From NCBI GenBank assembly GCA_040954595.2, contig CM082595.2, positions 7,484,317-7,548,316 of the forward strand: a stretch of DNA of 64,000 bases, in the 5' to 3' direction. Numbering within the stretch: position 1 is the first letter of the stretch; the number at the start of each line of letters is the position of its first letter. Positions 7,995-13,749 of the stretch are shown here, piece by piece. The notes under the pieces are model-generated. The model ran no database searches and was not told the origin of the DNA. It worked only from the letters and a program-made list of their open reading frames with translations. This stretch comes from Balanoglossus misakiensis. Its lineage: Eukaryota > Animalia > Hemichordata. A program made the translations under genes and the position numbers.

Positions 7995-13749
<5,755 letters not shown>

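Follow-up and report, generated by a model that had tools for sequence, protein, structure and literature searches.

Acyl-CoA carboxyltransferases that act on medium and long chains have been described in actinobacteria, in which they supply unusual polyketide extenders and the branch of mycolic acids. MccB (SamR0483; PDB 5INF) is the beta subunit of the medium-chain acyl-CoA carboxylase of the stambomycin cluster, and the sections of its description that deal with specificity name Gly161 and Ala423 as the medium-chain specificity residues (PMC5187497); residue numbers in the MccB chain and in that paper are six apart. In the same sections, it is proposed from a structure overlay that a Phe at position 161, the residue conserved there in every enzyme known to accept acyl groups of up to 4 carbons, would clash with hexanoyl-CoA, and an Asp-to-Ala mutant of PccB (D422A) is reported to bind butyryl-CoA (PMC5187497). 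Mycobacterial AccD4 is presented, in the account that PMC13012033 gives of the complex, as the long-chain carboxyltransferase of the AccD4/AccD5 heterohexamer (PDB 9T97), which handles C16-C26 chains for mycolic acid together with its partners AccA3 and AccE. For human propionyl-CoA carboxylase (PCC), the part of bioRxiv 2024.04.30.591959 that treats the structures describes D440 as making no direct contact with acyl-CoA, and an engineered glycolyl-CoA carboxylase (GCC) carries His at position 143, according to the relevant text of PMC10729300. Exon 5 of the human red/green opsins, in the portion of PMC3924837 concerned with conversion, forms a divergence peak where selection removes conversion tracts.

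The window analyzed here, a stretch of 64,000 nucleotides from the acorn worm Balanoglossus misakiensis (contig CM082595.2), begins partway through an array of tandem PCCB-like genes, three copies of which are seen (Table 1). Stops, frameshifts, and broken splice sites were absent from copies 1-3, and the PF01039 Carboxyl_trans domain was detected with 53 bits in exon 4 and 63 bits in exon 14 (cut-off 22.3). All three copies possess the oxyanion glycines G199, G200, and G434 (human G202, G203, and G437), and the equivalent of human A438 is Gly in the copies, likewise in MccB and AccD4. Residues 179-535 of copy 1 do not differ from those of copy 2. The N terminus of copy 2 is Arg-rich, like a mitochondrial presequence when read by eye, and because it resembles the presequence of the Ptychodera protein, the copy-2 product is predicted to be mitochondrial. 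Site sharing among the three copies over positions 9999-14738 is mosaic (35 sites shared by copies 1 and 2, 21 by copies 2 and 3, 11 by copies 1 and 3, and 2 at which all differ), consistent with exchange inside the array. The final intron of copy 1 holds an insert of ~1 kb (positions 3424-4431), probably a mobile element, that copies 2 and 3 lack. A tandem repeat of ~126 bp with internal inverted similarity lies in intron 1, at 8437-8989 in copy 2 and at 17302-17851 in copy 3. Contigs of sequencing run X2 loop the end of 11061-11318 (copy 2) and of 19865-20120 (copy 3) back to the start, and these joins perhaps represent a repeat or a ligation product.

Table 1. Features of the window, with positions counted from its first letter
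Feature	Position	Strand	Remarks
PCCB-like copy 1	44..4790	+	exons 5-15 only; exon 4 upstream of window
PCCB-like copy 2	7995..13749	+	15 exons, 535 aa, open frame, introns all GT-AG
PCCB-like copy 3	16860..22578	+	15 exons, 535 aa, open frame, introns all GT-AG
Patch	9833..9859	+	last 9 codons of copy 2 exon 4, residues 170-178, IGSYGEVGR
Copy 3 counterpart of patch	18695..18721	+	canonical-type helix LAGYADIFQ
Gly177 codon, copy 2	9854..9856	+	equals human PCCB F180, S. coelicolor PccB F160, MccB Gly161
A161G of copy 3, in GGARIQEG	18668..18670 (base 18669)	+	Ala in 239/239 ungapped homologues
Near-identity tract, canonical gene versus derived copies (exons 2-6), patch excepted	9226..10550 (approximate)	+	borders inferred from low-depth contigs parting
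Derived exon 7 HQFL	10640..10651	+	all three copies (canonical YLFI); 3 listed differences from canonical gene, all nonsynonymous
Derived C-terminal pocket motif (A435G, D437A, S440G, R445G)	13031..13075	+	also 3060-3104 and 21861-21905
B-box/Filamin/NHL TRIM-like frame	27077-29047	-	656 aa, intronless; Pfam scan
Two frames after death-effector exon	31017-31499, 29683-30282	-	same strand as that exon; no Pfam match
Death-effector-domain exon	32869-33309	-	Pfam scan
Amino acid permease gene	35630-48511	+	multi-exon, cationic transporter-like

An earlier note on this DNA had described copies 2 and 3 as almost identical apart from one short patch at the end of exon 4, and both statements were borne out. 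Over 6976 aligned nucleotides, 81 SNPs (~1.2%) and 16 indels were counted. Within the patch, 11 of the 27 nt differ between the copies and indels are absent, and all 8 changed codons alter the residue, so that Tyr alone is retained among the nine. This amounts to 10.5 nonsynonymous versus 0.5 synonymous differences by the Nei-Gojobori method. The densest 27-nt window elsewhere holds at most 4 SNPs, 20000 random placements gave a maximum of 6, and the proteins of copies 2 and 3 have 4 residue differences in total outside the patch. As read from the sequence, the patch also shifts the context of the exon 4 splice donor (9857-9865) from CAG/GTATGT to AGG/GTATGT and adds upstream GT dinucleotides; the GT at 9851, if spliced, would remove three codons in frame.

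Alignment to PCC homologues placed the patch on the acyl-pocket helix, as had been claimed, and its Tyr173 (human Y176) at position 143 of engineered GCC. The helix does lie downstream of the GGARIQEG motif but does not follow it directly as the note had it, because three residues (V-D-S) intervene, and copy 3 reads GGGRIQEG. In an AlphaFold model of the Ptychodera monomer, the patch falls inside helix 171-186, where a pLDDT of only ~51-54 makes the placement weak. The Phe-to-Gly change, to which the note had drawn attention, corresponds by alignment to MccB Gly161, the very site of the proposed clash with hexanoyl-CoA. Phe occupies position 177 in 236 of 236 ungapped PCC homologues, and it is paired with the sequence AYD in 233 of the 236 proteins having both regions. 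PDB 9J0C carries AYGGGYGVMGSK. Five of the eight patch changes (G171, G174, E175, V176, and R178) recur in the PCC of M. extorquens, a short-chain enzyme, and are thus tolerated states rather than marks of a long-chain enzyme.

The note had further held that the paralogs are being diversified in substrate range. The patch indeed alters the pocket, but it is neither the sole nor the first change, since an Asp-to-Ala replacement and about ten others are present in all three copies. When compared with 250 other homologues, copy 2 departs from 15 and copy 3 from 13 of 270 near-invariant columns, versus 2 for the Ptychodera and 1 for the Glandiceps protein. Changes common to the copies include Y219H, A244Y, C362G, L395S, K423R, A435G, D437A, and R445G. 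Exon 14 starts with a derived 12-residue motif that matches AccD4 of M. smegmatis at 12 of 12 positions and differs from MccB at the last residue only; its replacements A435G, D437A, S440G, and R445G are each one base away from the canonical codon. At the equivalents of Phe180 and Asp440, Gly and Ala are found in copy 2, Phe and Ala in copy 3, and Ala at the Asp440 site of copy 1. Copy 2 accordingly shows both residues of the MccB signature Gly161 plus Ala423 (G177 and A437), and copy 3 shows the Ala only. Of five other MccB pocket residues, three are matched in copy 2 (Tyr157, Tyr187, and Leu191).

Bacterial proteins offered a natural test of this pairing. Retrieval by the C-terminal motif gave 120 bacterial loci, of which 78 had both regions and 41 of the remainder were short loci; a stricter version of the motif recovered 55 of the 120. 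Phe was found at position 177 in none of the 78 proteins, the residues being G (33), V (13), S (12), C (12), and A (8), although these are related actinobacteria that stand for few independent events and their match to the C-terminal motif is circular, as they were selected by it. One group of actinobacterial carboxyltransferases, sharing a 10-residue motif, accounts for 23 of the 78 and carries Cys, Ser, or Gly in place of the Phe.

From these signatures we consider it probable that the array encodes an animal medium-chain acyl-CoA carboxylase, arisen by convergent evolution, with a predicted activity that would yield 2-alkylmalonyl-CoA. The lack of direct contact between human D440 and acyl-CoA, the patch residues shared with a short-chain PCC, and two unmatched MccB pocket residues (Ile396 and Phe399) weigh against this reading. 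The main rival is that the pocket was retuned for branched, aromatic, or halogenated acyl-CoAs, or for the decarboxylating direction, rather than for straight medium chains. Several residues speak for such retuning: Q220, Y244, G362, S395, and R423 each occur in 0 of 55 proteins of the bacterial motif-bearing set, and MccB Ile396 and Phe399 are without match in copy 2, where Ala410 and Leu413 stand instead. Acorn worms also make brominated aromatics and inhabit low-oxygen sediment. The two best-documented determinants, however, both agree with the medium- and long-chain enzymes, and we regard retuning as unlikely.

The nearest named relatives of the copies are the PCCB proteins of Ptychodera flava (P0013, 83-84% identical) and Glandiceps talaboti. 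In a tree of 34 proteins, copies 2 and 3 grouped with these two (support 96/99), and eight actinobacterial MccB/AccD4-like proteins formed a separate clade (100/100). By signature the worm proteins resemble MccB and AccD4, and by sequence they are outside both lineages. Lateral transfer from actinobacteria was rejected on the grounds of the separate clades, the GC3 of 0.40 in the copies, and the single-base steps of the motif changes; the latter two argue for convergence instead. Among the best 120 hits, a single PCCB of canonical type came from each of Ptychodera and Glandiceps, and the expansion therefore looks lineage-specific. Derived PCCB paralogs were not seen in other animals among the best 120 of ~8000 proteins scored per search.

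A separate canonical PCCB gene is present outside the window. A 1702-nt contig of run X3 skips the GT-AG introns, carries the copy-3-type helix (LAGYADIF) in exon 4, and reads YLFI in exon 7; runs X1 and X2 contain a genomic contig with canonical exon 7-8 letters. This spliced contig was the sole one found for PCCB, and no separate derived-type transcript was seen beside it, a result that speaks neither for nor against expression of the derived copies. The canonical contig has a depth of 43.5 in X1 and 131 in X2, compared with ~300 and 800-1160 for the derived type. The resulting ratio of 6.1-8.9 suggests that each canonical gene is accompanied by ~7 derived copies, or by half as many if the canonical contig represents one haplotype, contig depth being a rough guide only.

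The patch was also checked in the contigs. Contigs from the DNA runs X1 (1371 nt) and X2 (431 nt) cross it with no alternative letters, which is a test of the consensus and not of the population, as runs X1-X3 represent one sample, from which the assembly itself may have been made. Across 9231-10600, X1 has a single contig, which agrees with copy 2 at 20 of the 23 sites of substitution between copies 2 and 3, patch included, and the copy 3 version of exon 4 has no DNA contig of its own in these runs. The copy-2 form is the path that was retained when the DNA assemblies collapsed the copies. For this reason, the patch is probably not unique to copy 2 but sits in more than one copy; from contig depth, a rough reckoning is compatible with anything from two copies up to most. 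An assembly error, either in the consensus of the patch or through haplotypes placed in series as an array, might be suspected from the closeness of the copies, the missing contig for copy 3 exon 4, and the lack of an array-spanning read among the data seen. Because the patch recurs in contigs of two DNA runs and the derived-type contigs exceed the canonical depth severalfold, within the roughness of that measure, we hold such an error to be very improbable.

Outside the patch, the canonical spliced contig and copy 2 have a single difference over 441 compared positions of exons 2-6, whereas the contig differs from copy 3 at 13 of 197 positions in exon 14 (p 2e-6 for the contrast). Canonical and derived sequences differ at three or more positions in exon 7 and at least five in exon 8, and 11-12 differences, some perhaps due to an indel, lie within the initial 65 nt of intron 7 (10673-10737). 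Low-depth contigs diverge from the window near 9226 and again near 10550-10600. Taken together, it looks as if the derived copies and the canonical gene have been homogenized with each other over ~1.3 kb, inside which the patch stands as an island, an account that rests on canonical sequence from bubble-collapsed contigs. Eleven point mutations are implausible within the 0.2% divergence of the flanks, and it is simpler to suppose that the patch differences are old and selected. Conversion tracts crossing the patch would have been removed by selection while the flanks were homogenized with the canonical gene, and copy 3 would be the copy that took or retained the canonical helix.

The earlier note had left the choice between positive selection and micro gene conversion. 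Conversion does appear to have acted, but on the flanks. Import of the patch itself as a single micro gene conversion event, with a more divergent paralog or bacterial DNA as the source, might explain its sharp edges and the fact that six of its nine residues equal the M. extorquens helix LGGYGEVFR, compared with one of nine for the animal helix. However, 7 of the 9 third codon positions equal those of the canonical-type codons, which would have a rough chance of ~6e-4 for a saturated donor and so disfavors a distant donor and favors point mutation. The search for a donor of the 27-mer was negative in the window, where the longest shared word was 11 nt and the best other site had 10 mismatches. 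Helices of 297 homologues matched at best at 5 of 9 residues and those of 145 representatives at 4 of 9, and bacterial donor patterns gave 0 matches in metagenome scans run without a positive control. An old sister paralog as donor would still require selection for the 10.5 versus 0.5 differences. We therefore judge one-step import to be doubtful. Direct repeats were not found within 9780-9900 and 18640-18760, and the only palindrome in these intervals is one of 9 nt at 18681-18696.

At a silent divergence of 9-18%, the probability of 10 changes in 20 nonsynonymous sites is 3e-6 to 1e-3 for a peak that was picked post hoc. The codon-level comparison that the note had recommended gave dN>dS within the patch, although this excess is weak when taken alone (p 0.02-0.18). 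Outside the patch, changes were counted at 4 of 1199.5 nonsynonymous and 6 of 378.5 synonymous sites (ratio 0.21, p 0.016), and by these counts the copies are under purifying selection there. The latter result bears on the idea that the copies are redundant and under relaxed constraint, through dosage or decay, with substitutions that are non-adaptive. Copy 3 has extra departures at the near-invariant columns, A161G and T232I, as such an idea would have it, and the chance of at least 10 nonsynonymous changes among the 11 within the patch is 0.20. Decay, however, would neither concentrate 11 changes in 27 nt nor recreate the AccD4/MccB motif via four single-base changes, and it sits poorly with the purifying signal and with frames and splice sites that are unbroken in three copies. 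Relaxed constraint is in our view quite improbable, and selected point mutation is the reading that we carry forward.

Other features of the window are listed in Table 1. Many related contigs map to the TRIM-like frame, which is thus taken as a member of an expanded family. The death-effector exon and the two downstream frames possibly form one immune-type gene. Positions 60240-63200 consist of an ATG/GAT-rich low-complexity minisatellite with strong GC skew. Neither a polyketide synthase nor an acyl-CoA ligase was recognized among the ORFs of the window downstream of the array, six of which were Pfam-scanned. Animal genes for one pathway need not cluster.

On the proposed route to a medium-chain carboxylase, tandem duplicates of the animal's own PCCB would have had their acyl pocket widened, likely by selected point mutations. 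Together with the ordinary alpha subunit, the derived beta subunits would carboxylate longer acyl-CoAs (~C4-C8 or more). The genes may form a graded series, from the canonical C3 enzyme through copy 3, with the D-to-A change only as in PccB D422A, to copy 2, with D-to-A and F-to-G as in MccB. The product might enter a specialized lipid or a defense metabolite. We advance only tentatively, as somewhat less likely than the carboxylase itself, the fuller picture of a dedicated acorn-worm medium- or long-chain carboxylase with graded paralogs and mixed hexamers, whose alkylmalonyl-CoA goes into an alpha-branched lipid or a polyketide not yet described. Alkylmalonyl-CoA made in the matrix would need export to reach cytosolic synthases. 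We know of no alkylmalonyl-CoA product in such animals.

In the open-licence literature, no paper was found on a medium- or long-chain carboxylase or a PCCB expansion in animals, nor on hemichordate PCC or neofunctionalization of PCCB; PMC10764717 mentions neither carboxylases nor hemichordates. If the prediction is true, the product is a building block that has so far not been attributed to a dedicated animal enzyme. Confirmed activity would mean cross-domain convergence on the same pocket residues and would indicate undescribed branched lipids in hemichordates. The copies would then also form a series of natural mutants that informs both the specificity of a human disease enzyme and the engineering of extender units. 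The patch would also be an unusually narrow case of selection guarding a 27-nt island against gene conversion.

Among the described systems, MccB shares with copy 2 the Gly at 161/177, the Ala at 423/437, Ile as the first patch residue, Glu two residues before the Gly, and the sequence GGGYAVMGS; the two helices read IAYYTELGV and IGSYGEVGR, respectively. In contrast to MccB, the copies are animal genes of 15 exons that by sequence descend from mitochondrial PCCB, and their carboxylase activity is predicted. AccD4 resembles copy 2 in the full C-terminal motif and in E175, G177, and R178 (AccD4 helix WYAELGRR), and it likewise coexists with a short-chain paralog, but it belongs to a distant lineage and has Trp ahead of the Tyr. 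With animal mitochondrial PCCB (human, 7YBU; Ptychodera flava, P0013) the copies share family, length, and oxyanion glycines, whereas they differ in their 13-15 near-invariant departures and in being arranged in tandem alongside a retained canonical gene. The engineered enzymes PccB D422A and GCC M5 are changed at the same pocket positions (D422/D407 and Tyr143); in GCC the Tyr is replaced by His, whereas the worm copies are natural and retain it. Opsin exon 5 parallels the patch as a short, nonsynonymous-rich island at a functional site between homogenized flanks, but the worm island measures 27 nt, lies within one exon, ends at a splice donor, and belongs to a core metabolic enzyme.
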